A DNA stretch of 63,159 nt, the filler included, from Hausera hauseri (lineage: Eukaryota): the NCBI GenBank assembly GCA_046269625.1. It is 11 parts of 11 records of this genome, joined end to end, with 100 filler letters (N's around TTAATTAATTAA, not from the genome) between each part and the next. Parts side by side here need not be neighbours in the genome. Positions count along the whole stretch, not along the records: positions 19,536 to 24,106 come from JBJURY010523237.1; 10 more parts are not named here. One strand, 5' to 3'. The translations under genes were made by a program, and so were the position numbers. Under the pieces are notes generated by a model. That model was not told the DNA's origin and did no database searches. It saw nothing but the letters and a program-made list of their open reading frames with translations. The stretch's first letter is position 1; every line of letters starts with the position of its first letter. Below are positions 498-57,653 of this stretch, piece by piece.

Positions 498-1001
498 TCA
501 AAGTATCGTTTGCAATGTTATTATAGGTCTGACGCGATATAAATATATAAAAATTTTTGTAGAGAACTTTGAAAAAACTGGGATTATCTTTATAGAACCT
601 AATACATAATTTAAAAGGATAGCGAGATTATTTTGTAATTTTTCCCAATGAATTTTGCCGCAATGATTATCAACGGGAAGCTTAAAACGGGAAGCAGAGA
701 CGGGTGACAATAACATATACATCAATGCATAATAACTGACCTTATTTTTGGTTAATTTTGTCATCTCCTCAATCTTGTCTCTTCTGATTCGATTCCCGAA
801 TGCGATATCGTTGATTCCGTGCCTTCCATGTCCAGCGGTCCTTCGATTGTAGAGTAGAATTTTTACTATATCAGTAAGGTATAATTCAGTTGCGTTTCTA
901 TAATCTCGGATTGTTTCTGTCAATATAATGATTGTTACGGATTTTTTAAGGGGATCCGATACCCCATCGTAATCAGCATTTGTGGCTCTAAGGAGAGCCA
1001 T
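498..1001 (-). CDS. Hypothetical ORF (167 aa)
   Basis: ATG-initiated ORF downstream of the PPIP5K remnant; no motif recognised. Confidence 0.25.
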   Translation of the reverse strand: MALLRATNADYDGVSDPLKKSVTIIILTETIRDYRNATELYLTDIVKILLYNRRTAGHGRHGINDIAFGNRIRRDKIEEMTKLTKNKVSYYALMYMLLSPVSASRFKLPVDNHCGKIHWEKLQNNLAILLNYVLGSIKIIPVFSKFSTKIFIYLYRVRPIITLQTIL

Positions 1002-1099
1002 TTACTTTCCCAAAATTTTTATCAATCCAAATTCGGTTAATCTGTTTAAAACTGATCTTTTTCAGATCTTTTTTGAACTATGCAAGGCTTTCAACTAAC

Positions 1100-3010
1100 A
1101 TCCCTTTTTTGTTGTAAGATTCCCGATTTGTAACAATTGTTCCTCGAATAATTTCCTCTGTTCTGTCAAAATTGATATTTCATCATCAAGAATTTTTGTT
1201 TTTTTTTACATATTTTCGAACCAATTTTTACTTCTTCAGCAGTTACTCTATATTCCTGTGGCACAATTACGTCGGCTGAACATTTGGCGAGTTTTGAAGA
1301 AACTCCCAACGATTTCCGAATGAAGTAATAGCGGGTTGTGAAGCAAATCGTATTTAATATCAGCATAAATGTCGGGAGTTTTTGTCAAATCGTGAGATTT
1401 ATTTAACGTAAAATCTTTTATTAGTTTTGTCCATCGACGAAGTAAAAGCTGCCATGATTCTCTATGGTATAACGGAATATTGGTAAACTTTTTTGCGCGA
1501 AGTTCCTGAAGAAACGACAAATACTTGGTCATATAGAACTGTAGTCGTTCGCACGTTCTTACAGGCGTCCATAAATACAACGCAATGCTGCAATTAAAGC
1601 TTTGGATTTACACGGTACAATGCATTTAAAATCTTCCTCGGTAAAATCTTTGTCTTCTGATAAAATTTCGTAAATTTTAGTATTGACTCCTGTTCGGCTT
1701 TTTTCGGAATCTTTCGAATAATTGAGAAGACCACTCGTATTTGCACTTTTGACCATTTGCACTAAAATCGGAGGTAACTCTCCTTCTAATGCCAGGAATC
1801 CTTTCGTAAATGCGGTCGCTGTCATTTGAACGCGACATTCGACACTGGCATAGATTTTTCAAGTCGTGTCTGTAGGTGCTGTGCAATCGTAATAGACCTT
1901 GACCCGCTAATTCCTCCAACAATCCTGTTCTTCCCAGGAATAAGCAACGAAGTGCTCGACCAAGTTTTGCTGATTGGATTTTTCCGAACTGTGTAAGTTC
2001 ACTTCTCCATTTCAAAATTATTAAAGGACTGGTGCTATTCGTTTCTGTACAGCTTTTACTATTTACCAAGTATTTCATTTGGACTTTTCTGTTTATTCCA
2101 CTAAAACGGCCATATAGTTCCAAAACAATTCTCATCTGTTCAAATTTTTGTTTTTTCTCTTCAATTTCACGATCGTATGTCTTCCTTAATTTGCATTCCC
2201 GGAGAAAATAAATAATAATTCCTAGTAATTCTTGCAATTGCGATGGCTTTTTCAATTTCAATTGAATATCATTCGGTGTTGCTGCGTACTCATTAAACAA
2301 CTCATGAAACTTTTGATGATGTACTAAAAGTTTCAATTTCCGTTTTGGTATCCGATCCTCATGTCTTATCACAGCTGATATACACCGTAACTCCATGATT
2401 GTTCCATGCGTCATTTTAACCAGGTTGTACGAATTTTTAGGACGTTGTTGTGGAACAGTTTGATCCGTTGCACTCAAATCCCATGGGTAGATTCCTCTTG
2501 AAATTATCAGACTTATTAAGTAACCACAATTGTCGAAATATTTTTTTGCGTTTTAACAAAACTAAACCCATTCACATCACAAACGTAAGGTAACCTATTA
2601 GCTCTCAGAAGATCAAACCCACATTTTCTTTGTTTGAATATATTGACAACTTGTTTAGCTATAGTTTTTTCTGTGGGGGATAAGATGATAGTCGATAGCA
2701 GGTGATTTCCTTGTTTCTGAGTGGGCGTAATCTTCGCCAACAGTGTAAGCCTTAATATCCGCACCGTCTGTTGGAATAAATTCCTCGTAAATATATAGTC
2801 CCACTCTTCGTATGGTGTTTATTGGAACGTATCGACTACTTTTGTTTCCAATTTTTTGGAATAATTCTTGTCGACCACCATCAGCACTACTGGGAAAGTA
2901 AACGAATATGTCATGATTTTCAGCATCAATTTGTTTTCCAACAAATTCGTAAACATCATTACCTCAATAATGTTTATCTTCCTCACGTAATAACTGACAA
3001 TCGTTTTTGA
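1100..3010 (-). pseudogene. PPIP5K: PPIP5K/Vip1 inositol pyrophosphate kinase-phosphatase, frameshifted and truncated
   Basis: Collinear motifs across several frames: [48 protein letters not shown] (ATP-grasp kinase), ELRCISAVIRHEDRIPKRKLK (RHGDRTP acid-phosphatase motif), GLLRLHSTYRHDLK, TAFTKGFLALEGELPPILVQMVKS, RESWQLLLRRW, PDIYADIKYDLLHN, ADVIVPQEY. Confidence 0.9.
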
Positions 3011-4013
3011 AATATTCCTCCGCTTTATCACATAATTCCATCGTTGATTTGAACCATTTGTAAAAACACATTTGCGTTCTCCGAATTACTGATTCAATGA
3101 CTCCTTGGTCATATTCGGGAATCGTTTCTCTACATTTAATAAAATTCCAATCATCTATGAGGATTTTCAAACATCTCTGATCAATTTCCAAAAGATTTCT
3201 CGAATCATCAATTGCAATGACGAGTAGATTTGTTAGATTTTCCTTATTTTCAACAGATTCCAAAGTAATAATTGAAAACGAAAGAGATATGTTTCTGTTC
3301 TGTGATCTCGTTATTATTCGTATTAAAACTCGTATTACTTTCTTTATCTCTTTACTCACCTTTTGATCCTCAGTAATGCAGCTGAAATAGGATAGTAATT
3401 CACAAACGATATCACTTGTATTACTTTCAGTATATCGATCTTTAGAATGAATAAATGAATAGTATGAATAGAGAGTGAGTAAATCCACTGATTTGTGTAA
3501 ATATCCAACGAATTCAATTAATTTTGAATGATTAATAAATCCAATACAACAGTTGCTGGTCTCGACCAGATTGCAATATCTCAACGACTCAATGTTTTCT
3601 TTATTCCGACAAGAAATTAAATTCTGATCACACAATTGCTGGTAAATCTTTTTAAACTTCACCAATATATGATTATGAATTTTCAAAATCACAAAACAAT
3701 TAAAGTCACAGTTAAAACGATATTTCAATTGAAAAGATATAACTGGCACTAGACTTAATAAATTCACTGATTTATATAAATATCCATCTTGATTTCTCAA
3801 TTTTTGGCTGTTGTATAATTCTATCACATCATTCCTCTTAAAGATTACATTTGATTTCCTTTTATTCTCGAATTGTGTCCCACCTGAGATGCCAATAATT
3901 TTTCGTCTCAGAAGTTCACTCTTTCGTTTATTTATTATTTCTTTTTCTTTCTTATTCATTTTCTTCAATTTTCTTTCTTTTTTCATCATCACATAATTCT
4001 CTTTGAATTTCAA
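2964..4013 (-). CDS. Hypothetical 349-aa ORF whose last codons run into the PPIP5K remnant
   Basis: Long ORF in AT-rich DNA with a Lys-rich N-terminus. Only the C-terminal NDCQLLREEDKHY resembles PPIP5K. Confidence 0.45.
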   Translation of the reverse strand: MKFKENYVMMKKERKLKKMNKKEKEIINKRKSELLRRKIIGISGGTQFENKRKSNVIFKRNDVIELYNSQKLRNQDGYLYKSVNLLSLVPVISFQLKYRFNCDFNCFVILKIHNHILVKFKKIYQQLCDQNLISCRNKENIESLRYCNLVETSNCCIGFINHSKLIEFVGYLHKSVDLLTLYSYYSFIHSKDRYTESNTSDIVCELLSYFSCITEDQKVSKEIKKVIRVLIRIITRSQNRNISLSFSIITLESVENKENLTNLLVIAIDDSRNLLEIDQRCLKILIDDWNFIKCRETIPEYDQGVIESVIRRTQMCFYKWFKSTMELCDKAEEYFKNDCQLLREEDKHY

Positions 4014-4429
4014 ATTAACAAATCAATTTCAACGATATCTAATTGTATTTTATATATACATTTACAAAGTATCTCTTTTACAACAATAAAACAAAAACTC
4101 ACACAGATTACGAGGAGATTTATATCATCAGAGAATTTGTTATTACAATTTATTTTCATGATCCTGGAGCTTGATTATTACAATGACTTATATAGAAATA
4201 TATATATATTCACGTCATCTACACTGATATACACCACCGTCCGCCGTCTCAACTCCCCGTCTCTTTCTTCAGTTAACTATTTTGGTGTATACAATCACTC
4301 TTAATAGGAATGAACTTTTCTTTTGTCTTTTCTGTTGGGATTTTTCGACGTAAACATTCTTTACATTTTCCATTAATATCTTCTACTTCTTTTGATAAAC
4401 CGGGAACTATGAAGTGATGTTGAATATAT

Positions 4430-4529
4430 NNNNNNNNNNNNNNNNNNNNNNNNNNNNNNNNNNNNNNNNNNNNTTAATTAATTAANNNNNNNNNNNNNNN
4501 NNNNNNNNNNNNNNNNNNNNNNNNNNNNN
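4430..4529. other. Artificial contig linker (N-TTAATTAATTAA-N, stops in all frames)
   Basis: The same 100-nt linker recurs at 8731-8830, 13591-13690, 19436-19535, 24107-24206, 29286-29385, 36765-36864, 41481-41580, 45657-45756 and 51229-51328. Confidence 0.98.
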
Positions 4530-4683
4530 CGCCCATCCCACTGCCCTACCCGCCCATCCCACTGCCCTACCCGCCCATCCCACTGCCCTACCCGCCCATT
4601 TCACGGCCCTACCCGCCCATCCCACGGCCCTACTCACCGATCCCACTGCCCTACCCGCCCACCTCACGGTCATACCCGCCCAT
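4530..4683. repeat. 21-bp C-rich minisatellite (CCCGCCCATCCCACTGCCCTA)n, about 7 copies
   Basis: Directly visible tandem repeat at the contig start; explains the GWAGRAV-repeat ORF. Confidence 0.95.
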
Positions 4684-5769
4684 CATCCTAAATCGTTATC
4701 ATCATGGAATCGTTCATATTTGGAGATGAATCAAAACGGATCGAGTTTGATTGACTGCAGCTGGATCCGTTTGATTTTACACGTTGAAATTTTCATTTAT
4801 ATACTCAGTAAATATTTTAACGTAATGCCATTATATAGTTCCAAAAAGTAAAAATTAAAAATATATTTTTGGTGATTCAAATCAATATATAAATACGTAT
4901 ACTCATTCAACAATTAATTAAAAACGTTGGATTAATTAGTTCGTAAATGGACAACTGAAATCAATTTCATACAATAAAGATGCAAAGAAGAATATCGTTG
5001 TCCACTATCTATCGACAGTTGCAACTGAAAACAAAATATCGTTTATTTTAAATAAACGTCAGAGAATAAAACTTAAATGGTCCAAACAAGAATCACAAAT
5101 AATCAAATTCCAAGAGTTTAACAAATTTGCTATTCTCAAGATTTAATACAAGTCATAGATTTTATACAAGTCATTTTCCCACAACAGGATATCAATATCA
5201 TACCTACATATAAATCCTGGTCATTAAAAAATGAAATAAGGAAGTCAAATAAAGATCAATGAAAATGGAAGTCATGTCCCATGAAAGACAAAAATATTTG
5301 CCGGAAGACATATCTACTACAAAATCGAATGTACAAAAGTCCAAAGCATTCTATTCGAAAACTCCACACTCGAATTTTGATCATTTCAATAAGAGTGAGT
5401 CATATGTTTTCAAGCATTTTAGGACTGTCAAAATTAACATTTTAGGAAAAATGACCATGATCCAGTTGGCTTACGAATACTAAAAACTTTTTATATCAAA
5501 CAACAAAAGCCGAAAATAAATAACAAAGAAGATGCACACGAACTGACGAGAAAACCATCTAAATATAGAAACCAATAAAACGTTTACGTAATTACGCAAT
5601 ACCCAAATGATATATATAATTCAAAAAATTTGGTGTTTGCCGAAATGTCGATCAAAAACATATTTTGCAGTATCGGTCTTTATTCGGAACAAATTTTAGT
5701 TTTACAAGTTTTATTCAATTATGCTACTTAGAGAACATTTGTATATTTTAATTATCATATTATTCAATC

Positions 5770-6324
5770 TGATATTCACCGAAAGAAGATTTTGCTGTCA
5801 ATTTGGTGGGATTGGAAAGATGCGGTGTATTTTGAGCCACTTTCAAGTAACCAAACGATCAATACAAATGTGTACTGTTAACAACTGGAGAAATTAAATG
5901 CAGCGGTCAACGAAAAACGGCTAGAATTCGTCAGTCGTAAAAGTGTCGTTTTCCATAAGGATAATGCTAGACCACACGTATCCTTGGTCACTCACCAAAA
6001 ATTGATTGGGAATTGATGTTACATACACCATATAGTCCTGACCTAGCACTATCAGATTACTATTTATTTCGATCTTTGCAAAATTTCTTGAATTGTAAAA
6101 CTTTCAATGATGATGACGCCGTGAAATCGCATTTGGTTCATTATTTTGCCTATAAATACCAGAAGTTCTACGAGCGTGGAATCATGAAATTGCCAGAAAG
6201 ATGGCAAAAGGCCATCGATCAAAATGGAAAGTATATCATTGATTAAATTTCATTGTAAATATAAAAATAAAATGTTTTGTTTGTATGAAAAAATCGGCAA
6301 TTACTTAGTTGCCAACCCAATATA
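5770..6324 (+). mobile_element. Mariner (DD34D) transposon, 3' half with right TIR, inactivated
   Basis: KKILLSIWWDWK, HKDNARPH, HTPYSPDLALSDYYLF and LPERWQKAIDQNGKY, with a stop and a frameshift. TIR-like CGGCAATTACTTAGTTGCCAACCCAATA at ~6295-6322 followed by TA. Confidence 0.92.
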
Positions 6325-19535: not shown

Positions 19536-20795
19536 ATCCATATGCTCTGCTAACTGGGCAAAGTCCTCATAAATGTCCTCTGTATGGATCTGATAGATGA
19601 AACTATCAGTATCCATATATATCAACTGCATGGACTTGAACTTGGAGACCATAATGTCGTAGTGGAAATGATACATCAGGGTCTTTGACAGGATGAGGAT
19701 TGCCATACCCACATATATGGGCTTGTTGAATACAAAGGATGTTTTTAGCATATGGATGCTGACCAAGTTCTCAGCCTATATGATGCTGCTGTGGAAGTTG
19801 GGCTTGGCAATAAGCTTCTTTGCTCGCTTCCAGTCACATACCAGTTCGATATTGATCCTGTTGTGGATATTCTCCATGGTCTTGCCAAAAACACTCTTGT
19901 TATATAGCTTGAATTGATCCTTCTCAAAGTCGTTTTTGGCATTAGTCCGCAGCTTCGTATGGAGATCTATGTAGGGCTGTAGCCACAGGGACTGGCTGAA
20001 TTGCAGGGCTCCATGGATCTTAGTAATACGAAGTCCATATCTAACTGCCTACTGGAGATTGATGTAGTGGACTACATACCTCTCCCTATTACCCATATGA
20101 CAGAGCAGCTTTATTGCTTTCCATGGGGCGGAGACCTGCTCTCAGGGCGGAAAGGCATCTGTTGATGCCTTGCGTGGATGGCAGCCGAATATTCCATATC
20201 CACCTCCAATATGTAGCCCGTATCTCCAGTGGGATCCAGGTTCAATATATAAATGTTTTCAGGATTCGCGACCCATTTGAAGTTATCATACAGCAATGGG
20301 GCGCTCATTGCATATCCATACAAGTTGTTGGTATCCAGGTATGATATATATGAGGATACCTTGTATGGATCATACTGGGCCATACACTTGTTGTTAGCCT
20401 CGCTATACCGGTGAATGGCCTGGCATATTCCGCCTCTAATGCCTCTCTCGATCATAAGGATCATGTCGTAATCCTTAATGATCTGCAGCCTAATACCAGT
20501 ATAGCGCGGCATTGCTGTCCAACTCATCCCTGGAGCCGTAAAGAAATGAGCCGGATCCAATGCATGTCTCTTTATTGTAACATCCATGAAACTGTCAAAA
20601 TGTCTGTCAGCACGTCCATCTTGAGGTAAATATCACTGTATTCCCCTATTGTCCTGCACTGGAATGCATGCCAGAAGTTCTGGGCATGCTGGTAGTCAAC
20701 ATCACTGATATCTCAATCAGAGAGGATACTGTAAAAGTCATTCTTGTCCGGAAATGAGGTTCCATCCAGTGTTTCCCATGAGGTTATGTAGTCAT
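19536..20795 (-). pseudogene. Polinton/Maverick protein-primed DNA polymerase B fragment (copy 2)
   Basis: LDPAHFFTAPG, ERGIRGG, YLDTNNLYG, KLYNKSVFGK, KPIYVG, YMDTDS; paralogous to ~39900-41160. Confidence 0.93.
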
Positions 20796-23060
20796 TGTTA
20801 GTGTTTGGTCAAAAAGTGTAGTTTGAATTGTTTTCTTCATGTTATTCATATGAGGTGGAATTACTCGATAGTAGAGAGAATAGTGTAAGAGATTAATACA
20901 ACTAACATATAACAATCTGAAGGGTGATTAACGTTCGGTGGTGGTATGACAACTAAATTGTCTGCACCTCTCATTCATAAACGGTGTTTTGATGTTAAAA
21001 TCTATCGTATTATGTTTAATCCACTACAGAATAAGGCGCAAACTTATTTACTTTCTAAGTGATTATTTGTTTTATAAAGTTATAACTGCTATGTTATATT
21101 AATAACTTGCAAAGTGTTCAATATATACTCCAATGACATATAGCTAACAATTTTTCAATATCTATAAACACTATGAGGTTATTATCATTCCTGGTTTAAT
21201 AGAATATTATAATCTTATTAGCTAATATAAACACATTTTCAAGTATCATCATCAAGTTGACCAAACTATCATCAACCTTATATCATTTATATACCTCCAA
21301 TCTTTTAATCTTACTCTATAACACATGGTTAATTGATATAACAATGGTCGACTTTATTAGACAATTTCGCTTTTTATTTGCTTATTAAATTTCACCCTAA
21401 GTATTGGTTCATGACTTTTCTAAATAACCTATTGTCCTTGACCAGATGCTATTAAACTCAATTTGAATACCTGGAACTTTGTTGTATTAATAAAATCGTA
21501 TTTTAGTAAATAAGCATCATATATCCAATTTTATTCACCTCATTATTACCCTAATAACAATTTCATTTTATCAGTTAAAATATCATGTGCTTATGATGGT
21601 CAAAACTTCGAATCACAATTTGTATTATAAACAATTTTACATATCGCATATTCGTAGAAATCGATTGTTTCTAAATCAGTAACGTGATCAAATCTTTACC
21701 TTAGTTACCCATCTAGAACAAAGGAAACTGTTTACATCATTTCATTATTTTCTTCGTCTTCTATCAATATGACACTATCATTAATGATATTCTAATCTAC
21801 CTAATATTTTATAAACAAGTGATATTTAATGATTATTACTTTCGAATGTACTTTAAACTTCAGTCTAATATGCATTTTAAATCTAGCAGTGAAGCTTTTC
21901 CTAACCTTCATAAATATCTGTAATAAAATTATAAACGACCTTTCTACCCATTTTAAATCTATTTTCGTCAGCAATCCAATAGGCTAATACCCAATGCCGC
22001 CAACGAAGGTATCATTTAATGAAAACACGCTTTATTCATAACACAAATAACACATTTATATATATGCACTTTATTTACAAACGGTGTAGATTGGTATCGT
22101 CAAAATTATTATTTTCATTAATAACTAATTTACCCCGGGAATCATCTGTTGCTCGTTGAATCTCGTTATTCGTCTGAGAATCCATTTGTGTATTTCAGCA
22201 CAATGATAAGGAAGAATAAATATCTTCGTAAGAATAGCAATGACCACTGGTTGAATTACAAATCTTTCTTAACGAATTATTATTTCCAACTATCATTTGG
22301 AATACGTGCTCACTAGCATTCAATAAAATTTGTCAACAACTAGTTTGATTTGGTATGGTACAATTATGGTTGTTTTTCTTGTTTTCAATCAGCTTTTATA
22401 CTTTCTGTCATGTGTGCATTAATTTTAATATTCCAAGGCTGATTTCCAAAATTGTCGATTCCATTAGTCAACATGTGTTTTCAAAATTGCCGGTTCCATT
22501 AGTCAGCGTATGTTTTTATTAATTTCGGAAATTACCGATTCCATTATTTCATTAACGTTACCATTTACCATATGATTTTTAAATCGATTTCGTTAATGGT
22601 CAACATGTGTTTCTTAATAAGAGTTCTATTGATTGTCATATGTTTTTCAACATTTATTTTGTTATTCATTAATTTTCATCTTAATCAAAATTTTTAAAAT
22701 ATAATTTTTGCATTAATTAACTAAATGCTTTAGTTTTCGTCTGTATTAATATTATAATCTCCTTTCCTTATCCAAAATGTATTTTAATTGACCGCAAGGT
22801 CTTGTATATTCCATAATCAATTTTTCACATCAATAACACCAATCAACACTATCTGTTTAATTTTCTAATAGCTGGTTAACAACACATTATACACGAACAG
22901 TATGATTATGACACCCAATCAGGGGTTCACAACAGCAAAAGTGCAAAGACGTAAAAGTGCAAAAATGATTGCACAAATAAAGCTTTAATTTACACAATAT
23001 AGTCACAATCATTAAAGTCTGATCACGCTCTTGGGTTAATGCACATAATAAACCCTAACA
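20796..23060 (-). repeat. Probable ~2.27-kb 3' LTR
   Basis: The minus strand begins TGTTAG at 23060, directly after the purine tract AAAGGAGGAAGAAA, and ends CTAACA at 20796 exactly where the pPolB sequence resumes. Patchy similarity to 42345-44890. Confidence 0.65.
22440..22650. repeat. Degenerate ~35-45-bp tandem repeats (AAATTGTCGATTCCATTAGTCAACATGTGTTTT)
   Basis: About 4-5 diverged units within the putative LTR. Confidence 0.6.
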
Positions 23061-23696
23061 TTTCTTCCTCCTTTGAAAAAGCATTCGGTCCTCCGGATCA
23101 CTCTGGGTACTGACATCGATGAAACTGAGATTTCTGGGTCTAATTGTTAAAGTTGCATCATTTATCGGATTCATCCAATGGCACAATCGTTGGGTACGAT
23201 TATCATAGATATAAGAGAAGTGATAGTAGAATGACGGTTGACGGCAATATGGATATGAGATACCTTTTTGGAAGGTCATTCGGAGTGCATCGTTTGGGTC
23301 GATAGACTGAAGTAATTGGGAACGAAGTTTGTTGAAACACGTTGCACATAGATTATGGTTGCACTGAAATTGGACCACTGTTATTCGTTCGGTAAGGCAT
23401 AGGGTGCATTCGTAGTTTGGAAGTTGATCGTAGAAAAGGATTTGTAGTGATGCCCAAAGGTCAGGCGGTGCTAGGTCGGAAATGAGATCGATTGGACATC
23501 TGTTTAAAACTGGAAACCAATATTGTTGTAACGATGATGGTAGTGGAGGACTATGAGATATAGTCCGTATCGGTGTAATTGAAGGTGTAGGTATTGGTAA
23601 TGAAGGTAATGGTTCATTAATCTGTTCAGGATGATAACATGGATGTGGTATTAAAGATGGTTGTTGTAGGAGAGCCGTAACATTTATATGGGGCAA
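23055..23696 (-). CDS. Pro-rich protein with C3HC4 RING finger (copy 1)
   Basis: CTLC..CNH.LCATC..YPYC (seventh ligand C>Y). The decayed Pro-rich frame continues upstream toward the contig end. Confidence 0.75.
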   Translation of the reverse strand: MPHINVTALLQQPSLIPHPCYHPEQINEPLPSLPIPTPSITPIRTISHSPPLPSSLQQYWFPVLNRCPIDLISDLAPPDLWASLQILFYDQLPNYECTLCLTERITVVQFQCNHNLCATCFNKLRSQLLQSIDPNDALRMTFQKGISYPYCRQPSFYYHFSYIYDNRTQRLCHWMNPINDATLTIRPRNLSFIDVSTQSDPEDRMLFQRRKKC

Positions 23697-24206
23697 GGGT
23701 ACTTGGTACGTAATTGGTGATTGTTTAAGTATTGTAGATAGGCTAAAACGATGGATAGGAAATTCAATTCTAGCTGACGATTGTTGTTCTAATCGAAAAT
23801 ATCGTGTCGGCAGTAATTTTGGTATTGGCGTGTTAGTAATGGTGAGGAGGGCTCTTCTAGGATAGTGGAAGTAATAGTATATAAATTGAGGTCAAAAATA
23901 ACATATACTACAGATTAGATATCGGTGTTGGGATTCCAGTTGACAACAATGCTAGCAATATTCGGCATTACAGCAACTAAACTGACAGGATGCTTTAATA
24001 GGTTTGTTGCATAAACAGCAGGTATGAAGTTGAAAATATGGGATAGAAAAAGTGGTTGATACATTTCAGGTATAGTAATATGTAATGTGGTCAGTAGGTT
24101 CGATAANNNNNNNNNNNNNNNNNNNNNNNNNNNNNNNNNNNNNNNNNNNNTTAATTAATTAANNNNNNNNNNNNNNNNNNNNNNNNNNNNNNNNNNNNNN
24201 NNNNNN

Positions 24207-27200
24207 CACTACAAGCAACAATTAACAATATAAACAACAAATTAAACGAGCTTTCCCTGTCCCGGCGAAGGGATTTTGCTGCTAACCGCGGCCCTTATGC
24301 ATCTAGAAACCGATCGCCATCGCCTGTGCGGTCGTCGATCTGCTATTATCACAGCAGATTCAATAAGAATGCCACGAAGTGCTGCCTAGGGTGCAAATTT
24401 TACAAAAAAGTTTTTCTTCAGACACCGTTGTTTGCATTTACCACGCAAACTTTAAAAATCAAGCCCGTAAATGCACTCCAAGCTGCACTTTCAAACCAGA
24501 TACGAACGCCGGACGTACTACATTTTTTTCTAATAGTCGTCCTAGTTTACCTTTTCAAAAAAACTAAATTTGCCGCCAGAAGTCACGGCAAACTCTGGCA
24601 AAGGCACTGCTTCACTTTCTGCATGCCGACATGCCTCTTTTGCTGTCTTTACTCTAAAGGCTGCAATGACCGCTCCTACAACGCAATCCGTTGATTTCCT
24701 CATCGATACAGGTGCAGCGATTTCTTATTACCACAATCTTTTTCTGTATACAATTCACCATTCAGAATTAAACCCTTATACACCACTTCATGTCAACCGC
24801 TGCACATTTCTGGTAGGGCTAAATTTTCCTTCATCTTCCCATTTTCACTGGAAGTTTACAGTTGCTAAAGTCCAGACAGCAATTCTAGTGTCCGATTTTC
24901 CATCACATTATAATTTATTGGTTGACTTAAGTCAACGATGTCTGAGGAGCGGCATCAATGGCAGCATTTCTGAGAATGTCAATAGCATTTTGACTACCGT
25001 GCAGTAGATCGAGACACGGAGGTCAATTTTAGAAAAATCAATAAATAATTCGAATATCCATAACAGTAATTCAATTCGTAAATTTTTAAATAATAATATT
25101 GATACTCGATCGAGGATCGATGTCGATAATTGTGGTACTGTCATCAATGTTCATTCACTTGAAGAAATTACTTCATACAACACCACTTTCAATTCGACCA
25201 TCTCATATCAAATGCCACTTGACTGCACATCACAAAACAATTCACAAATCGCATCCGCTGCTATTCAAGCTGCTTCACCATCATCATCGAATCTATCACA
25301 GTTGCCTACAACTTTACAGCAATTCGCTACCACATTATGTCCACGCGTACTTCAAAAAGATCGTTCGTTTACTCCTACAAACAGCACTGTACATCACATA
25401 ATTACACAGCATCAACGAACAACACGCCAAAAGGTACGACCACTGTCATCTCGTCGTAGACAGGCTGTAGAAGCCGAATTTCTTGAACTAGAACGCTCCG
25501 GAATTGTACGTCGTTCGAAATCTACTTGGTCGTCAACTTTACACGTTGTACAAAAGGACGGTACTTTGGACCATGCGGTGACTACCTCCAGTTGAACAAC
25601 TTGACAAGCATGGATGCGTATCCCTTGCCACTCATCAAGCACATCCTGCATAGCCTTAATTCAACTACCATTTATTCGACCATCGATTTGGCCGAAACAT
25701 ACCATCAAATAACGGTGGCACCCGAGTTCCTCTTTATACCTTTCGGTTTGCGAAATGCCACACAGACCTTTCAGCGACATATTCATTCGATTCTCTCAGA
25801 TTTTCCGTTTGCGCACCCTTACATTGATGATATTCCGATAGTTTCGTCTTCGGTCAAGCAACACGAGGAACACCTTCCTGCAATATTACAACGCTTTAAC
25901 CACCATAATCTCCAAGTCAATTTCGACAAATGTCATTTTTCCAAAAAGCCAATCGACTTTTTAGGCCACGTTATTTCACCAGACGCCCACTCTCCTCAAC
26001 CAAACCAAGTTGAAACACTTAAAAATATCCAGTTATCACGTACGACCACCGAAATGCGCAGCTTCCTTGGTACACTACACTTTGTACATAAATATGTACC
26101 ATATTGCTCTTAATTGACAGCCCAATTTGCACACTTAAGCGGTGGCAAAAATATCAGCCAATCCAGTGGACACCTGAGTTGGTCGACAAATTTAATAAGT
26201 TACGCGAAGGAATTAAGACCGTCGACATTCTCGCTTTCTCCAATCCTGATGCAGAACTCATCCTTACCACAGACGCTTCGACCACTGCAGTAAGTGCTGT
26301 GCTTCGCCAAATCCACAAAGGAGAAAATCAACGGCTAGAATTTTTCTCTCGCAAGCTAACATCCCCTGAAACTAGATATTCAACGTTCGATCAAGAGTTA
26401 TTGGCCATCGTCCTTGCTCTAAAGCATTTCTCCCACCTACTTGTCGCTCTCCATTTTACTATACAAACCGATCACAAACCCTTACTTAACATCATGGCTA
26501 TGAAACATCCTTCCACACGCCAAAAACGACAGATATCATATTTGTCAACATTTAACTTTGACATAGAACATATAAACGGGGTTAATAATTTAGTTGCCGA
26601 CTTTTTATCCAGGTCGGTTATTTCGATTAATTTTTTACCGATTTTTACGCAAGCTCAGCTTCAACAGAACCAGCCACCTCAGGACATGATTAATTCTTTC
26701 AAGTCTCGCACAGTCGGCGTGGCTTTAGACACTTCCAAACCAAGTCATTTCGTAATAATTCTTGCACCATCATTGCAAAGGCAAGCATTCAACAGTGTAC
26801 ATTCGCTACACCATCCTGGTGCTAAAGCCACTTTTCGTTTACTCCATTGACAAGTAATTTGGCCATCAATGCGTTCTGATGTGCTGGCATGGGTTAAGGA
26901 GTGTGTGGCTTGCCAAAAATACAAAACAACTAAGCATTTAAAGCCACTACTGTTCCACTATCCCTGCACATGGCGTTTCGAGTCCGTGCATATCGACATC
27001 GTTGGCCCTCTTCCTCCAGATAACGGTCATCAATTCATTCTCACCATAAAGGACCGTTCCTTGAGATGGCCGAAAGCCATCTCTCCGCAGAACACGAACA
27101 CCGATACCACATCTGACGTTTTCATTTAAACATTGATTAGCAGGTTTGGATCACCTCGTTTCATTATCGCGGACCGGGGCTTACAGTTTGAATCCAACCT

Positions 27201-28483
27201 GTTCAAAGCCCTTGTTAACCAATTGGGGATCCATCACATACATACCACGCCTTACCATCCCCAATCGAATGGCCTCCTAGAAAGCTTCCACCGAACATTG
27301 AAAACGTCACTAAGAATCCTTGCAGAGTCCAACACTAGTTAGACGAATCTTTTTCCGTTTGTTCTGCTTGGCTAGCGGAACACTCCATCTACTTCTACGG
27401 GATGCTCACCTACTGAAGCCTTATTCGAAGCTTCTGTACGATCATTATTCAAACTAACTGCTCTAGATGACACTCCTACAGATAAAACAATACGGGCGGC
27501 GCAAAATCACTTCGTTACGGTCAGCAAAGATTTGTACTTTAGGATACTTTACAAAGACAAAACAAATTTACCCGAAGACTTGTATTCGACAAAATTCGTA
27601 TGGCTAAAAAATCAAACACCGTGCGGTTTTCAGCCGCGGTATCTGGAGCCCTATAAACTGATACAGCTGCATTTACATAATGCTATTATCTCTAAAGACG
27701 GCAAAGAACTTATAGTACATATTACCAACTTAAAGCCCGCCTTCTTTGTCGACGATACTTCATCAATCGACATGTCAACCTCTTTTTTCAATCCTGCACT
27801 CCCTGATGTTCCTTTATCTGTTCCTACACCAGTTTACCAACTCTTTCTGTTTCTAATTTTGTTTCATAATTCTCCACACCTTCGACTTTCATTTCTATCT
27901 CTCTTCCTTTCTCTACCACTTCTTCAGCCTCACTTTCTACTTCTACTCCTTCGCCTAACACAATTTCAATTTCTACTTCAATTTTCGTCTCCTCTCCTTC
28001 ATCCGCTACTTCACCTTTTGTCACTCCTTCGTTTTCTAACCCTCTCTCAAACACCTTCAACTGCCCATCTCCAACAATCGCCCTCCCTCCTTCACCTTCT
28101 TCTTCTCTTCGTTCTGACTCGTCTTTGCACGAAACAACACTAACAACAAAATCAGACAATTTTTCCCCAATTTCAACCTGAGCAAGCAAACACACCGCAT
28201 AAAGACAAAACGCGCAGAGTCACATTTAGCTAATATAGCAGGGAAAAATCAGTAAAAGGCACCCAACGTCTTGTTCACACTAAGACCAACAGACACACAC
28301 TTTTTCGTTTGACTACTTTTCTTTCCGTCTGTTTTGCTCTTTATAGTTTTTATTTGCCACGGGGGTGATGTGGTGCCCACGGCGGCCGATGCCCTTTGGC
28401 CTCTTTGGTCGGGCGCGGCCGGGCATCCGTTGCCGTTGCGTCGGGCCCATACTCGGGCCCGATCTTCCGCCTCGAAAATTTCT
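24207..28483 (+). mobile_element. Ty3/gypsy LTR retrotransposon (CsRn1-like): gag end, PR, RT, RNase H, IN, PPT and start of 3' LTR, degenerate
   Basis: CHCC knuckles; FLIDTGA; PFGLRNA, PYIDD; TTDAS, YSTFDQELLA, TDHKPL, VADFLSR; HHPG..CVAC, HIDIVGPLP, DRGLQFES, YHPQSNG; Pro/Ser-rich tail; G-tract then TGTGGTG at 28369. Confidence 0.95.
24558..24599 (+). promoter_or_regulatory. -1 ribosomal frameshift signal with H-type pseudoknot
   Basis: A AAA AAC TAA; stem 1 TTTGCCG/CGGCAAA; stem 2 CCAGA/TCTGG; the -1 frame is protease ORF 24570. Confidence 0.75.
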
Positions 28484-37669: not shown

Positions 37670-40600
37670 TAATTTTTAGATGTGCAAACTTTACAAAGAT
37701 TGCTTGGCTCAAATCCATGAGCCTAAAAATTGCCACAGTATTATGATGCAATGTTCTAGCCATATTTACAACAGGGTTTAGCATTATATATTCCCTACAT
37801 GTGAGATAGTGTGTCAAACCAATCATGAAGACTTTTACAATGTCCATAAATAGCACTTGATTTCCTTCACCAAGTCGAAAAAACATATGCCAATAACGAC
37901 TTTCGTGCCGAAGGAAAATCAAAGATGCAGTTCATATGTGTATTGCACATGTGCAATACACAACACTCAGAATTGCCACAATGCCATGAGGAGCTATTAT
38001 GGGCACAAATTCAACAAGATCATTTATTATATCTTCCCAGGATGTGAGGCTGTAGGTGATGGAGAATACATACAGTTTTATGAAGATCACAAACATCATT
38101 TGACTGACTTCACATCAAAATCAAAGAAGATCATCTTTAATGAACATAAGCCAGTTACACAGCCTGCAGTACCACTGCCTGTAGCAGCAGTACAGCCAGA
38201 TGCAGGACTAAAACTCACATCAGGCGCATTAGGCCTAGCGGCTCCATCAAGGGATCAAAACAGCGGCCAGTTGATGCTGCAGTATTAAAGAGGAAATGTT
38301 GCAAATACGTCATTGATGCAAATGGTCAAACAACCATCAAGGATTACTTGGAGTACACAGGTGAAGAAACAATAGAGATTCTCTAGGACAACATAGCCGA
38401 ACTCAAGACCCTTAAGGGTAATATGAAACATGAGTCCACATATGTCAATGTTGGTGGCGAAGAGTCCAAAAGGGCCTTCAAAACCTGAAATAGACCCATT
38501 TTTGAAGCCACCAATATAACAGAATGGCTGAATGAAGAGCATACAAAGCTGATCCGTGAAGCCGATGAGAGCCAGAGTAAGAAGAGCGGATGGACTCTGG
38601 CAGCCATCAAAAGATTGCTTGTGTATGTGCACAGATTCTCCCCCATTCGGGATAGTTCATATATTCAACTCCCCGATTGGATCGCTAATAAAAAAGCATA
38701 TGTCAATGTCCATAATAATGACATGTGGTTCATGTATGAAATTCTATCAAAACTCGTGCCTGATCAACATAATGCTTTAAGAGTTTGGCAACATACAGAT
38801 GTGCGGCACAACTATGACTTTCAATGTATCACATTCCCTCCATCCTTAGATGAAATTAAAAAGTTCAGCCGAATCAACAACATATCAACCAACATCTTTG
38901 AATTAGATGAGGAGGACAAATTCTATCCCTTGCAGATATATGATAATGGATTGGAAGATCATAGGGATCTGCTCTTATTAGATGATGGAGAAAAGAAACA
39001 TTATGTTTTTATCAAGAACTTTGAACGTCTAGTCAGATCCCAAATTACGAAATAACAAGGATAAATAGAAATATGTAAGCGATGTCTGCCTAATTTCAGT
39101 GGTGTTTCGGCAGTGGACAAGCTTGCAGAGCACAAGATGTACTGCAGCGACAATTACTTTGTAAGACCAGAATTTCCAAAGGAAGACTATATTGAATTCA
39201 AGGAGTTCGAGAAGAAGAAGCTCTTCTCCAGCCAGTTCACAGCTGTACTCGCAGTCCTCAACATAGCAGCACAGCGGCATATTAATATCATGAACTTTCA
39301 TCGTATTGCATGTATGCCAAAGGACTGGACAGTGAACCATTTCTATTCAAAGGTCCAGGTATAGCAACACATTTCATGAAACGACTTAAAGATATGGCTT
39401 ATAAGCTTGGAAACATGCTTCAGCAGCATAAGAATACAGTGAGTATGTCGTGAAAACAAGCAGAAGAATGGCGCAAAGCAACAACATGTTACTTGTGCGA
39501 CAAGTCCTTCACCAAGGAAAATCATAAAGTCAAAAATCACTGCCATTTTACAGGTGTATATCGAGGGTCAACATGCCATAACTTCAGTCTTCGCTGCAAA
39601 ACATGCACACATGTGCCTGTAGTGTTCCATAATCTCAGTGGCTATGATTCCCATTTTATAGTCCGAGAATTATGGAACATTGATAGCAATATAGATGTGA
39701 TCCCAAACAGTGAGGAGAAGTATATCACTTTCACTAAACATGTTGAGAAAATCAGGCTTTGTTTTATTGACTGCTTTCGTTTCATGTCGTCTTCACCGGA
39801 CAGTTTAGTGAAGAACCTCCCTGCAGAAGAACTCAAGGAGACGAAGCGATTCTTTCCCACTGCATTTGACTTGGTCAAAAGGAAAGGCATGTTTCCTTAT
39901 GACTACATAACTTCATCAAAAACACTGCATGAGACCTCATTGCTGGCTAAGAATGATTTTTACAATATCGTTTCTGATTGCGATATCAGTGATCCTGATT
40001 ACCAGCATGCCCAGAACGTCTGGCATGCATTCCACTGTCGAACATTAGGGGAATACAGCGACATATACCTCACGACGGACGTGCTGATTCTGACAGATGT
40101 CTTTTAGAGCTTCAGAGATATTACAATAAAGAGCCATGCATTAGATCCGGCTCATTTCTTTACGGTCCAGGGATGAGTTGGGCAGCAATGCTGAGATATA
40201 CCGACATAAGGCCGCAGATCATTAAGGATTACGATATGATCCTTATGACCGAGAGAGGCATTAGATGCGGAATATGCCAAATCATTCATCGGTATGGTGA
40301 GGCCAATAACAAATATATGGCCCAGTATGATCCATTCAAGGAATCCTCATATATATCATATGTGGATGCCAACAACTTGCATAGATGGACAATGAGCGCA
40401 CCATTGCCATATGATAACTTCAGATGGGTCGAGAATCCTGAAAACATCCCTATATTGGACCAGGATCCCACTGGAGATACGGGATACATACTGGAGGTAG
40501 ATATGGAATATACGGCTTCCATCCACGCAAGGCATCAACAGCTGCCTTTCCTCCCTGAGAGCAGAGAAAAGAGAAAGCAGAGAAAGTTGCTTTGTCACGT

Positions 40601-41480
40601 GGGTAATATGGAAAGGTACGTAGTCTACTACATTAATCTCCAGCAGGCAGTTAGACATGGACTTCGTATTTTTAAGATCCACAGAGCCCTGCAGTTCAGC
40701 CAGGCAATGTGGCTGCAGTCATACATTGATCTTTATACGAAGTTGCGGACCAATGCCAAGAACGACTTTGAGAAGGACCAGTTCAAGCTTTACAACAACT
40801 CGATCTTTGGCAAGACGATGGAGAATATACGCAATAGAATCAACACTGAGCTAGTATGTGACTGGAAGCGGGCAAAGAAGCTTATTGCCAAGCCTAAATT
40901 CCACAGCAGCACCATATATACTGAGAACTTGGTAGGCATCCATATGCTGAAAACAGCATCGGTATTCAACAAGCCCATATATGTGGCTATGGCAATCTTC
41001 GACCTGTCAAAGACCCTGATGTATCATTTCCACTACGAAATCATGGTCCCTAAGTTTAAGTCCATGCAGCTGATGTATATGGATACTGATAGTTTCGTCT
41101 ATCAGATCCATACAGAGGATATTCATGAGCACTTTGTTCAGTTGGCCCAACATATGGATACCTCGGACTATCTGAAGGAGCATCACAACTATTCAAATGT
41201 CAACAAAAAGGTCGAGGTGAATGGAGCAGTCATCTCATGATTTGTAGCTCGCAGATCTAAAATGTATGCCCTAGACGTATGTGGTCAGATCAAAAAGAGA
41301 ACCAATGGCGTTCAAAGGTCTACGTTGGCCAAGAAGATCAGTTTTCAGGACTATGTGACAGTTCTGCAGTAGCAGACTCACATTATGTCGGAAATGAGAA
41401 GGATCCAATCTAGGTTTTCATAACATCTAAACAGTAACTCTGCATAAGAAAAGCCTAGATTGGATGGATGACAAAAGGCA
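37670..41480 (+). pseudogene. Polinton/Maverick protein-primed DNA polymerase B with EndoVII/HNH-like insert, disrupted
   Basis: SSYIQLPDWIANKKA, KHYVFIKNFERL, CDK..NHCHFTGVYRG (EndoVII-like), FHNLSGYDSHF (ExoII), KGMFPYDY, YVDANNL, KLYNNSIFGKT, YMDTDS, RSKMYA; several stops and frameshifts. Confidence 0.93.
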
Positions 41481-41580: not shown

Positions 41581-42406
41581 CCCCAATTACTGCCAACCAA
41601 ATACTTTCGATTAGAACAGCAATCGTCAGTTAGAATTGAATTCCCAATCCATCGTTTTAGCCCAGCCACAATAGTTAGACCACCACCAATTACATTTCAA
41701 GTACCTTTACCCCATATAAATGTCCAATCTCTCCTACAACAACCATCTTCTATACCGCATGCACGCTATCATCCTGAGCGGATTATCAGACTATTATCTG
41801 AATTACCTGTACCTGAACCTTCAATAACTCCTACACCAACTATATATCATAATCCTTCATTGCCTATATCACTGCAACAAGATTGGTTTCCTGTACTTAA
41901 TGAATGTCGAATCGACCTTATTTCNNNNNNNNNNTGCACCGCCTGATCTATGGGCTACATTAAAAATTTTTTTCTACGACCAACTTCCAACTTATGAATG
42001 TACTATCTGTCTTACCGAACGAATAATAGTGGTCCAATTCCAATGTAATCACAGCATATGTGCAACATGTTTCAACAAACTCCGCTCCCAATTCCTTCAA
42101 TCAATTTATCCAAACTATGCACTCCAAATGACATTCCAGAACGGCATTTCATGCCCATATTGCCGTCAACCATCAGTTTATTACCATTTTTCCTATACAT
42201 ACGACAATCGTACCCAGCGACTATGCCATTGGATGAACCCAGTGAACGACGCAACGCTTACAATCAAACTCAGAAATCTCAGTTTCATAGATGCCAGTAC
42301 CCAGAGTGATTCGGAGTACCGAATCCTTCTCAAAGGGGGGGGGATTTTGAGATCCTTTAAAAAACCATCTGAGATCCCGTGTGACATACATGATGACAAT
42401 TTGTGA
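41581..42406 (+). CDS. Pro-rich protein with C3HC4 RING finger (copy 2, 5' partial)
   Basis: CTIC..CNH.ICATC..CPYC; clear paralogue of 23055-23830; purine tract AAAGGGGGGGGGA at 42332-42344. Confidence 0.78.
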
Positions 42407-44890
42407 TAACAATCTAACCCATGATGACAATTTGTGATAACAATCTATAAACAATGACAATTTGTGAGGACAAGTTTTGAACATTATTTGACAAAAACAT
42501 TTATATAACTGATATAAATTCAATTGAATCGTTAACAAAGTGTAATGGAAATACATTTTTTATGCTGTCTCCTTTTGAGTGTCTTGTTAAGCCCCTCTTG
42601 ATGGGCATTATTGACGAAACTTATCTTATGTATTGTGTCATTGTGAACCAGGAAGGCGGTTGGATAGAAATTACTAAAACATTAAAAGTTTGTTAAAAGT
42701 TTCAGAATAGTATAGTAAACATTAAAATTGACACAGTTGAGAAGCACAAAGGAATGCTGTGTGACTAATGATAAGAGTACAATAACAAAAAGTTACAATA
42801 ACAAAAATCGATTGTGAAATTTGAATCTGACAGTTCACAAGCAGTTCACAAGCATATTAATTCACAAATGTACTTTTTCTAAATTGGAACACTAAAAATA
42901 GAAAAGCACTAATAGACAGACCAGCAATATATAAGAAAGCAAAAATAAACTCCATAAAAATTTTGACACAAGACTTAGCTGATTGATAATCGCAACTTTA
43001 AAGAAGCCTAAAGGTAGGTTTCACCATATTATCACTTATAGAAGTGACGTTTAAATAGAATATAGAAAACCTACTGTGAATTCTTACCAAGATCAACGCC
43101 AACTCTATTCCTATTCCGAATACGAGAATTTGTTTCATCATTAGTAAATCACTTATTGATTTCCAGAATACCCAGCAGTGAAACATCAACAGTAGAATTT
43201 GTGGAGACACCGTAGAAAACATATAATTGATATATGCTATCAACAGTGCACGAATTTGAAGTTACCCTTGATAACAAGCATTCACCGCTAATCAAATGAA
43301 CGGTTCGTCAACACAGCTCGAACAAAATACAGGTATATGCATACTTCATATTATTGGAGTGTAATTTTAAATATTATATATTACCGCCGATATGTTTTAT
43401 GATTTGTAATGAAGTTTGTGACATAAATAAATTTTAAATATAATAAATGTAACCGAGCCGATTTTATAGAGATGCTCGAATTTTATTTTGTTTCGTTACA
43501 TAGAAGACAGAAAAGTGGATAGATTCAAAATCACGAAGCAAGAGAGTAATCATCGAGATACGGATCAATATCAGAAACCAGTACAAGATATTCGAAAATT
43601 ACTCTGCCGAAATCTAATGATTATTAAAGTCGAGGCTGAATTTCAATCGAGAAAAGGAAACTCCATTAAAGGTATCTTTGAATGAAATTGGAATTCAGGG
43701 TAACTATGTTTGCTGCACAACGAAGGAAACAGAGTTAGTATAGAGATTGAGATAAAACTTTGGCAAAAGTCGCGGAATAAGGATATCAAGAATTACTTCG
43801 AGCGAAATATTGGTTGCCACGGTGGATGATCGATTGGTCAGAATAGTGAATGGAGATATTAGTGGGAAGAAATCATGGATGATAGAGGAAAAGAATAGGT
43901 ACTGTTGTAGCATACATGATTCAGGAAAGGATATATATACATTTGTCAACAATGACTTATATTGGATCAAATTACGGAAATAATAAACAGTAGCCTTGAG
44001 GTAGAGCTTATGTACGAATAGTAGGAGAATAGTTCAGAGCCGTATTTGCGGAGAACTAGTAATGGTAGACTAACTATGGTGTAAACGTTTCATTAATGGC
44101 AACCGAAAAGAAACGAATGATTGGCATTAAATGATAAAGGTAAAAGAAAATACAAGGTTGCTGAGGATGAGCAGATAGTGAGTATTATAACCTACAACAT
44201 TTGGGTGACGAGAGAGAAATCAAACCTGCAAGATATGATTCTTGAATATATATCTCTGTTAATTGTATTAAAATGTTATTGAACGAGATGTATACGTGCA
44301 TTCACTGCGCTTCCGATAAGGGTACTGATTCCAGGATACAGAGAGTCGGTCTCGTTTATTTGATAATAGACAAATTCCATGTTTGCCTGTCAATTCAGGA
44401 ATGTGGTCAGGTAAATATTTACGTTGCAACCGGAAGTTTATCCTCTATTACGGAATTGAGGGGTGAATAATCTAAAACAAAATTTGAGAGAGAGGTAAAA
44501 GGATCGATAATAACATATTTTAGTATTGGTCAATTAAAATGTACTCAGGGGGCATAGCGGTATTTAGCGAATACTTATTTCCCGTTGATCCCATTCAGCG
44601 GATACTTATTTCCTATCTATTTAATTTCCCTTTTAGCGAATTTCCCTTTGAATATGATAAATTCGACGTTGGAAGATGCGCTGCATTGAGCTCTGTGAGG
44701 ATAAAGTAAGTTATGGATAAATATTAATGAACGAATGAAGTATGAATTATCGACACCGAACGAACAAGAATAAATTAAAATTCGTGGACTCAAACCCAGA
44801 TTGAGACTATGGCATAGAAAGGAGATTGTACAAATAAAACCAATTATGTATTTGAAAATTATTCTAGTGAAGTCCCAAATGATTTTATAT
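42345..44890 (+). repeat. Probable long LTR (second diverged copy)
   Basis: Follows the PPT-like tract; patchy similarity to 20796-23060; short tandem repeats at 42389-42470; AATAAA at ~44833. Ends are uncertain. Confidence 0.4.
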
Positions 44891-45656
44891 GTTGATACGC
44901 GTTAAAAGTCTAGTTATGACCCCTGTAGCAACATTATTATGTTTTGAGGTATCAAAGGCCACACCGCCGACGGTTTTGCACGATTTATAAGATTTAAGGA
45001 TGCCAGGAGGTGGCAGTATTTGTTGAAGTTTGAATTGGAGGAAAAATTGGTGTGAAATCAATCGAGCTGACCTATCGAGACAAAAAGTCAGCAACTAAAT
45101 TGTCGACTCCGTTTAGAAGCTTAATTTCAAAATGAAATGTGGACAAATAGGACATTTGCCTCTCCTGATGTGGAAAAGGCGATTTAATGGTGAGAATTTG
45201 AAGCAAGGCCTTGTGGTCCGTTTGTATTGTAAAGGTTTGTGCGGTTAGCAGATGATTAAAGTGTTTTACGACAAAGACCATTGAAAGCAGCTCCCTATCA
45301 GAGGTGGAATATCTTTGCTCTTGTGCTGTGAATTTTCGAGAAAAGAATACTAACGGCTCATGGGATCCACCTTTTACTTGATGGAGGACAGCACCTGCAA
45401 CTGTTGTGGTTGCATCCGTGGTTAAGAAGATTTCTGCATTGGAGACAGGATAGACCAGGATTTCCACGGTTTTTAGATTATCCTTGATGTGATCGAAAGC
45501 GTTGACTAGCTCGGCTGTCCATTGAATAGGCTGTTTTTTCTTACCAGAGCTTAGTGACGCAAATGGAGCGGCTAGACTAGAGCAGTATGGAAAATAAAGT
45601 GCAAGGATCCGAGGAAAGAACGCATCTGTTTTTATACTTGGTAGCTGTATGTTTTT
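44890..45656 (-). mobile_element. Ty3/gypsy RT-RNase H fragment (same family as 24207-28483)
   Basis: LTTDAT, FFSRKF..YSTSDRELL, QTDHKAL, NLVADFLSR, TVGGVAFDTSK. Confidence 0.9.
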
Positions 45657-57339: not shown

Positions 57340-57650
57340 GACTGTAATGCACTGTACCATTTATTGCGGTCCGTAATGGACTGTGCCACTTATTGCGATT
57401 CATAATGGACTGGGACTGTGCCACTTATTGGAGTCATTAATGGACTGTACCACTTATTAGGGTCCGTAATGGACTGTACCACTTTTTGGGACCTGTAATG
57501 GATCGTACCACTTATAGGTGTCCGTAATGGACTTTACCACTTATAGGTGTCAGTGATGTACTGTACCACTTAATGGGGTCTGAATCGGACTGTACCACTT
57601 ATTAGTGTCTGTAATGGATTGTAGAACTTATTAAGCTCTGTACCACTCAT
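57340..57650. repeat. ~31-bp minisatellite (GTAATGGACTGTACCACTTATTGGGGTCC-like)
   Basis: About 10 diverged units. Confidence 0.9.
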
Positions 57651-57653
57651 CAG

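Follow-up and report, generated by a model that had tools for sequence, protein, structure and literature searches.

A stand-alone RING-finger gene at the putative 3' end of a long terminal repeat retroelement family in the Hausera hauseri assembly

RING-type E3 ubiquitin ligases are encoded by several viruses, examples being ICP0 of herpes simplex virus 1 (HSV-1), IE2, PE38 and CG30 of baculoviruses and p28 of poxviruses, and RING proteins of large DNA viruses such as ICP0 remove host silencing or restriction factors. The extra genes other than env known from long terminal repeat (LTR) retrotransposons include nucleases, esterases, an AlkB demethylase and plant open reading frames (ORFs) of unknown function. 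In the portions of the literature cited here, these include the DEDDy and GDSL ORFs that stand as a non-env ORF3 in bdelloid Vesta and Juno (PMC5408684), an AlkB ORF in an orchid gypsy element (PMC9289625) and the additional ORFs (aORFs) of plant LTR elements (PMC7264820); a RING finger is reported there from the Gag protein of Osvaldo/Isis-like elements, with an LTR of about 2.57 kb (PMC3630058). Here we describe a RING-finger gene present in two copies, A and B, in a 63,159-nt stretch of the Hausera hauseri assembly GCA_046269625.1 (the window), which consists of 11 contigs joined by N44-TTAATTAATTAA-N44 linkers, contigs across a linker being unrelated. Each copy is followed by a long LTR-like segment, and we take both stretches to be the 3' ends of a pol-bearing, probably gypsy-type LTR retroelement with a stand-alone accessory E3 gene, a reading to which we assign a probability of about 0.6. 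When all LTR-type readings are summed, a retroelement 3' end is very likely, though not proven; its support comes from how the segments terminate, from a tract/junction that recurs in homologs encoded on other contigs and from the fact that each copy is nested in an unrelated element.

The two copies and the junction of tract and putative LTR

The layout of copy A is as initially annotated, with a Pro-rich region, a C3HC4 RING (lacking one ligand), a purine tract and an AT-rich segment following each other on the minus strand (Table 1). The ORF does end at the tract, which falls within its last codons, and the stop codon sits in the first bases (TGTTAG) of the putative LTR. The segment is bounded by TGTTAG...CTAACA, that is, by perfect 6-bp inverted termini, and the earlier claim that its far end coincides with a break in a Polinton-type DNA polymerase B gene (polB) is borne out to the base, between 20795 and 20796. 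The two polB pieces of the window are 84.7% identical over 1,268 nt (39899-41159 versus the copy A contig), the similarity beginning at 20795, and from base composition a CTAACA hexamer would occur at this fixed site with a chance of about 2.7e-4. One flank of the element is present, where so clean an interruption of polB is consistent with an insertion. The flanks of the 2,265-bp segment differ (GTCAT versus TTTCT), so that the segment has no target-site duplication (TSD) of its own, and a solo LTR or independent terminal inverted repeat (TIR) insertion behind the gene was rejected on this ground. Upstream, the reading frame is interrupted by stops at 24068, 23954 and 23894, and the contig runs out about 70 codons before the start of the homologs; residues 72-425 of the homolog P0002 match contig A in one frame (24101-23058, 65%, tblastn). 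Three in-frame stops and one lost RING ligand indicate that copy A is a pseudogene.

The ORF of copy B is 78% identical to that of copy A at the nucleotide level over 756 nt. Its LTR-like segment adjoins a gypsy pol gene that is homologous to the gypsy at 26092-26850 and truncated at about 44934. Matches to the gypsy at 26 kb number 8, 7, 6 and 5 per 10 nt down to 44926 and then 2, 4, 4, 2, 5 and 4. Homology thus falls off at about 44926-44935, and it is in this zone, at 44933, that the contig has the end of its last CAACA (the chance of a CAACA in the 20-nt interval considered is about 0.02). The homology break and the CAACA therefore place the end of copy B at 44933 rather than at 44890, where it had first been set. 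That the segment might be a remainder of the neighbouring gypsy was considered and rejected, given that no tblastx match lies below about 44980. Both copies end within coding sequence of unrelated elements, polB in the case of A and gypsy pol in the case of B. The first third of both segments contains tandem repeats of 31-35 nt (35 nt x 3 at 22443-22557 in A; 31 nt at 42388-42477 in B). Hidden coding was also rejected: the longest stop-free frames, 68 aa in A (shuffles mean 76) and 109 aa in B, are within the range of shuffles, and 3-periodicity remains at z < 3 in all windows within the segments except one at 3.8.

The purine tracts of 14 nt (A) and 13 nt (B) abut the LTR-like segments, and the same arrangement can be read from proteins encoded elsewhere. 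All four homologs that reach the C-terminus (P0002, P0005, P0003 and P0007) end in peptides fitting a tract-plus-TGTTAG junction, P0004, P0006 and P0008 being N-terminal fragments. P0002, P0005 and P0003 end FQRGEKC, to be compared with FQRRKKC in copy A, and P0007 ends FKGGRNVRVC, its last residues matching a shifted frame of copy A at 9 of 9 positions and so taking in the first LTR bases. Because it is shared by homologs on other contigs, the junction is a property of the family and not of one locus. Furthermore, of the synonymous codons among the 20 compared codons nearest the tract, A and B share 13 of 14, whereas farther upstream they share 47 of 89 (p = 0.007); this suggests a signal at the nucleotide level, of the kind expected of a cis-element. 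The gypsy 3' ends of the window, GAAGGGGGGTAA and CGGGGGTGA, each followed by TGT, have the same form, a G-run, 2-4 nt and then TGT.

The search of sequencing runs returned one run as holder and no RNA holders. Run X1 is possibly the source sample and hence not independent support; its depth is summed contig depth, not copy number, and the 85% identity cut-off drops diverged copies. One X1 contig covers the ORF/tract/segment junction of copy A (22833-23099) with 2 letters differing, and a 452-nt contig with 62 differences over 21759-22208 of the copy A segment (86% identical) suggests that a diverged second copy of this segment exists, at a location that the contig does not give. None of the 8 pieces shown, out of about 29,900 from this run, bridges the polB/LTR junction, which proves nothing. 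The pre-tract stretch (23055-23210) is far deeper in run X1 than the ORF body (75,623 at 23082 versus 900-3,400), and in P0007 the RING gene is reduced to its last ~50 codons plus the junction.

Table 1 Coordinates of the two copies, their targets and the related polB piece in the window
Feature	Position	Strand	Details
Copy A contig	19536-24106		
PolB of Polinton/Maverick type (protein-primed), decayed, C-terminal part; target of copy A	19536-20795	-	Truncated exactly at 20795
Copy A, putative 3' LTR	20796-23060	-	2,265 bp, 28.6% GC, non-coding
Copy A, open part of RING gene (P0001)	23055-23891	-	278 aa, stop-to-stop
Copy A, purine tract (putative polypurine tract, PPT)	23061-23074	-	AAAGGAGGAAGAAA, 14 nt
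Copy A, conserved post-RING segment, then DxSTQ[TS] tail	tail ~23120-23100	-	
Copy A, C3HC4 RING	23408 to ~23244	-	Without seventh ligand at 23255-23253
Copy A, Pro-rich linker	~23760-23515	-	
Copy A, upstream part of RING gene	23892-24106	-	Stop-broken
Copy A, 8-Cys finger	24020-23901	-	Interrupted by stops
Second, longer decayed Polinton-type polB copy	38489-41480	+	
Copy B contig	41581-45656		
Copy B of RING gene	41581-42406	+	Pro-rich part 41581-41924, then N10 assembly gap
Copy B, C3HC4 RING	41999-42163	+	All eight ligands; PF13920, 29.1 bits (cut-off 27)
Copy B, purine tract	42332-42344	+	AAAGGGGGGGGGA, 13 nt
Copy B, putative 3' LTR	42345-44933	+	2,589 bp, 33% GC, TTTTG...CAACA, end ...GTAGCAACA
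Copy B, stop codon	42404-42406	+	~60 nt into putative LTR
RNase H and integrase start of unrelated Ty3/gypsy pol; target of copy B	44934-45656	-	PF17919, PF17917

The RING gene and its predicted product

The searches recovered few relatives of the RING protein, all of them ENA proteins without a name: 429 candidates yielded 2, a set of 1.84 billion representatives yielded 3 and, with a profile, 3,587 candidates yielded 3. P0002 and P0005 (425 aa each, 99% identical) carry the whole design, namely an N-terminal RING-like finger in which the second ligand is missing, an 8-Cys finger with the spacing C-x2-C-x11-CC-x4-C-x2-C-x11-C-x2-C, a Pro-rich linker, the C3HC4 RING and a tail; neither the 8-Cys finger nor the N-terminal finger of the homologs had been part of the initial annotation. 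The C-terminal RING has a 27-residue insert between ligands 6 and 7, and its ligands are complete in copy B, P0002, P0003 and P0005 (8 of 8) and number 7 of 8 in copy A. PF13920 exceeds its cut-off for copy B, and the start of the RING aligns, without significance, with YECPICL of TRAF6. AlphaFold2 models (mean pLDDT 31.6 and 34.5) were too poor for use; a fold search with them gave no match at E <= 0.001, a result uninformative at that model quality, and none of the PHROGs families was matched.

The RING ORF is real and under purifying selection. The comparison of substitution rates across RING copies that had been suggested at the outset gave a dN/dS between copies A and B of 0.157 (bootstrap 0.10-0.24) over 244 codons and of 0.08 over the RING plus tail, with dS of about 0.8-1.1 and with 35, 30 and 87 differences at codon positions 1, 2 and 3, respectively. 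When the other frames were used as a control, four of five gave dN/dS of 1.3-2.0, and the in-register antisense frame gave 0.24 with 14 stops. The low ratio and the distribution of differences over codon positions indicate that the gene was translated and selected while the copies diverged. No transmembrane segment was found in the three proteins tested, the highest 19-residue Kyte-Doolittle mean being 0.89-1.34, so that the RING protein is not env itself.

In the C-terminal RING, Ile or Leu precedes Cys2, Pro follows ligand 7 and Arg follows Cys8, residues that at these positions activate E2~ubiquitin in RINGs of the BRCA1 and RNF4 types. Judged from these sequence features, and granted the RING, the protein is probably an E3 ligase. 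The sequence IDLI before the last RING, which we take to resemble a SUMO-interaction motif, is a motif lead only. The tail motif D-x-S-T-Q-[TS]-[DE] is found in 5 of 8 stored proteins, which are all five that reach it, with about 0.001 expected per protein; it reads TQS in the window copies and lies within the nucleotide-constrained stretch. According to the cited part of work on LC8, this protein prefers a TQT anchor with Asp at -4 and an acidic residue at +2, and many TQT peptides fail to bind it (PMC6607443). The tail would fit these preferences, again as a motif lead.

The proposed element would work as follows. The purine tract would prime plus-strand synthesis, and the segment of 2.3-2.6 kb would be the LTR; the accessory RING gene, of about 425 codons, would occupy the env position, and its translation would use either a spliced or an internal transcript. 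The C-terminal RING, perhaps together with the N-terminal one, would activate E2~ubiquitin, with the substrate recruited through the 8-Cys finger or the post-RING segment, and the protein might remove host silencing or restriction factors, as in large DNA viruses. By analogy with HSV-1 ICP0, host silencing or restriction proteins are a tentative choice of target, and the anti-silencing role put forward in the initial annotation would be a candidate function. More speculative, and doubtful as a whole, is a scenario in which an animal gypsy-type lineage captured a three-finger RING ligase as a 3' accessory gene, possibly from a Polinton-like or large DNA virus, the product acting as an ICP0-style counter-defence E3 that is possibly LC8-dimerised through its TQT tail.

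The probable carrier element of the gene

Several observations weigh against an LTR retroelement with an E3 gene. No gag, pol, primer binding site, 5' LTR or TSD is seen, both contigs ending within the ORF, and the copy B segment begins with TT rather than TG, an imperfect terminus. The A and B segments cannot be aligned with each other (local score 37; mean 31 and maximum 39 in 30 shuffles); hence, the view that the family is seen twice holds for the ORF, the tract and the layout and fails for the LTR sequence. With the synonymous sites of the two ORFs already far diverged, unalignable LTRs would be expected, and we infer that A and B represent subfamilies too far apart (dS ~1) for their LTRs still to align. 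Summed depth in run X1 is about 1-34 on the A segment (bins 20913-23054), as against 2,000-5,800 on the ORF body, and variant contigs number 31-66 per listed site on the ORF (103 at 23082) and are far fewer on the A segment. LTR families usually hold at least as many LTRs as internal parts, and run X1 shows the reverse; the low depth on the segment could be explained by fast LTR divergence under the 85% cut-off. As for the protein, most RING Pfam scores are under the curated cut-offs, PDB matches of the RING are not significant (best E 0.06), and the middle, 8-Cys finger could not be assigned as a RING, its matches to families (Siva, E 0.92; FYVE_2, E 5.4) and to the PDB all lacking significance. 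The retroelement 3' end proposed in the initial annotation thus stands as far as the termini, the shared junction and the nesting are concerned and falls short of proof for want of pol, a 5' LTR and a TSD.

Scans for related loci confirmed none of 10 and none of 77 viral stretches, none of 69 and none of 147 in JGI metagenomes and none of 55 in GTDB. Junction sequence patterns gave no matches, and an 18-nt pattern gave two that were seed-only.

The alternative that fares best, although we regard it as unlikely, is a non-autonomous element resembling large retrotransposon derivatives (LARDs), with the RING gene inside, no pol and mobilisation in trans by an autonomous gypsy. It accords with the failure to find a longer or fused form of the RING protein, and P0007 and the depth of 75,623 at 23082 imply that derivatives, possibly RING-less, with only the 3' end in common probably exist. 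However, the excess depth could reflect higher conservation near the tract, and purifying selection across subfamilies (dS ~1) is easier to understand if the gene travels with an element that benefits from it, as in the pol-bearing element that we favour.

We consider it somewhat less likely still that a gypsy or Bel pol/integrase polyprotein carries the RING domains as an extension of its C-terminus. The reading frame does run into the tract and has its stop in the putative LTR, and the copy B and P0007 variants end EDRILFKGGRNV or EYRILLKGGG, much as many gypsy pol proteins do. However, the first residue of P0002, P0004 and P0005 is a Met immediately ahead of the first finger, and these proteins have no match to an integrase or chromodomain family, although these gene calls come from an unknown caller and the starts may reflect upstream decay; furthermore, none of 2,661 candidates among proteins of 745-2125 aa represented a longer or fused form, which is weak evidence. 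The integrase C-terminal fusion entertained in the initial annotation is accordingly disfavoured, the 425-aa homologs starting with the N-terminal RING-like finger.

It is improbable that the RING gene is cargo of a Polinton, adintovirus or other DNA virus-like element, with the AT-rich segment as a separate insertion or spacer. Copy A does adjoin a Polinton polB, and the nearest Atlas clusters include small RING proteins of Preplasmiviricota and Nucleocytoviricota (scores 0.89-0.91, leads only). Yet polB is cut mid-gene at the end of the segment instead of lying intact beside it, copy B abuts gypsy pol instead, the segment lacks a TSD of its own, and the ORF-side junction is common to homologs. 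A DNA-virus origin of the captured gene itself is possible.

The least probable candidate is a retrovirus-like element with env, either errantivirus-like or an endogenous retrovirus of fish that entered with co-assembled host DNA, in which the RING ORF would be a nef-like accessory gene over the PPT. In its favour speak the overlap of the ORF with the PPT and its end in the LTR, both typical of retroviral accessory genes, and the mixture of DNA of unlike character in the window; against it stand the lack of env or any other upstream gene on contigs that end in the ORF and of a transmembrane segment in the protein. Should the upstream DNA not belong to an LTR element, the RING gene would still represent a new multi-RING family that is under selection, is carried by repeats and has no name in the databases.

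Window context and comparison with known systems

Divergent eukaryotic genes of compact build occur in the window together with two pieces of polB and several of gypsy pol. Some contigs carry such compact, divergent genes and others are rich in repeats, a difference suggesting that DNA of a parasite and of its host was assembled together. The region 1248-2963 (-) contains a divergent gene in fragments that are spread over several frames, as tiny introns would cause; it has a histidine-phosphatase domain (PF00328, E 1e-10) and is presumably PPIP5K/VIP1-like. A decayed gypsy at 24207-28370 (+) carries gag, protease, reverse transcriptase (RT), RNase H and integrase followed by a long Ser/Pro/Thr-rich tail, with its PPT/LTR start at about 28358-28370 (28369-28483 is 84% identical to 50933-50819), and another gypsy pol, which served as an internal reference, has RNase H and integrase in an open frame of 622 codons at 46594-48462 (-) and ends at about 46572, its PPT GAAGGGGGG being followed by an LTR that starts TGTGGCG. 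Repeats include 29-nt tandem arrays in two blocks (57342-58789), a 99% direct duplication of 722 nt (56210-56931 and 57651-58372) and a 21-nt tandem array of 7.4 copies at a contig start (4530-4684).

In translations of the window, YLDTNNLYG, NNSIFGKT and YMDTDS are presumably motifs of the polymerase. The longer polB copy scores 25.7 bits with PF03175 (cut-off 25.8) in its upstream part and carries in front a finger weakly resembling endonuclease VII (PF02945, E 0.008). The summed contig depth of polB in run X1, about 0.5-3e5, suggests a very large family; a scan for related Polintons with polB confirmed 0 of 2. Rfam had no match in the window, and a bacterial promoter scan was at background (21 versus 17.7).

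In the literature covered, which lay for the most part outside subscription papers, Repbase reports and supplements, no LTR element had a RING gene standing by itself at its PPT; the word RING has no whole-word occurrence in PMC5408684 or PMC5890265, and the cited passages of PMC10799480, PMC2238898 and bioRxiv 2021.04.23.441226 contributed nothing further. An LTR retrotransposon with its own stand-alone predicted ubiquitin ligase is apparently undescribed. The initial remark that RING domains are not a standard 3' module of such elements agrees with the lack of a stand-alone 3' RING ORF in these sources, and it needs to be qualified by the RING in Gag of Osvaldo/Isis-like elements (PMC3630058, in part).

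The Osvaldo lineage, as far as the cited part of the description of the Isis-like element from Calliphora vicina goes, resembles our family in its ~2.57-kb LTRs, in an element-encoded RING and in the very different LTRs of related elements (742 versus 2,574 bp; PMC3630058). It differs in that the RING there is in Gag, whereas here it belongs to a separate 3' gene with two RING-type fingers and an 8-Cys finger, no RT being seen. Burro/GYPSM1, a giant planarian gypsy, likewise has ubiquitination-linked domains in the published sections cited (MATH/TRAF, BIR, SUMO-like and an AIR1 'RING Zn-finger' motif), but there they belong to a Gag-Pol polyprotein of ~5,000 aa or to an ORF upstream, not to a stand-alone RING gene at the 3' end (PMC6431247). 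With the non-env ORF3 elements, to the extent of the passages cited above, the family shares a captured enzyme gene under selection as an extra ORF, mostly placed between pol and the 3' LTR; in contrast, the gene here encodes a predicted ubiquitin ligase and its ORF overlaps the PPT, its place relative to pol not being visible on these contigs. If our reading is correct, the substrates of the E3 would point to anti-transposon factors of the host in a little-studied lineage.

The likely functional analogues are the viral RING E3 ligases, which are also element-encoded C3HC4 RING proteins with a Pro-rich linker and with which the viral Atlas neighbours would agree, as leads only. Protein searches gave no significant sequence homology to them, and the carrier here is a retroelement rather than a large DNA virus. 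If true, a conserved stand-alone E3 would show that LTR elements, like large DNA viruses, can send host proteins for destruction.

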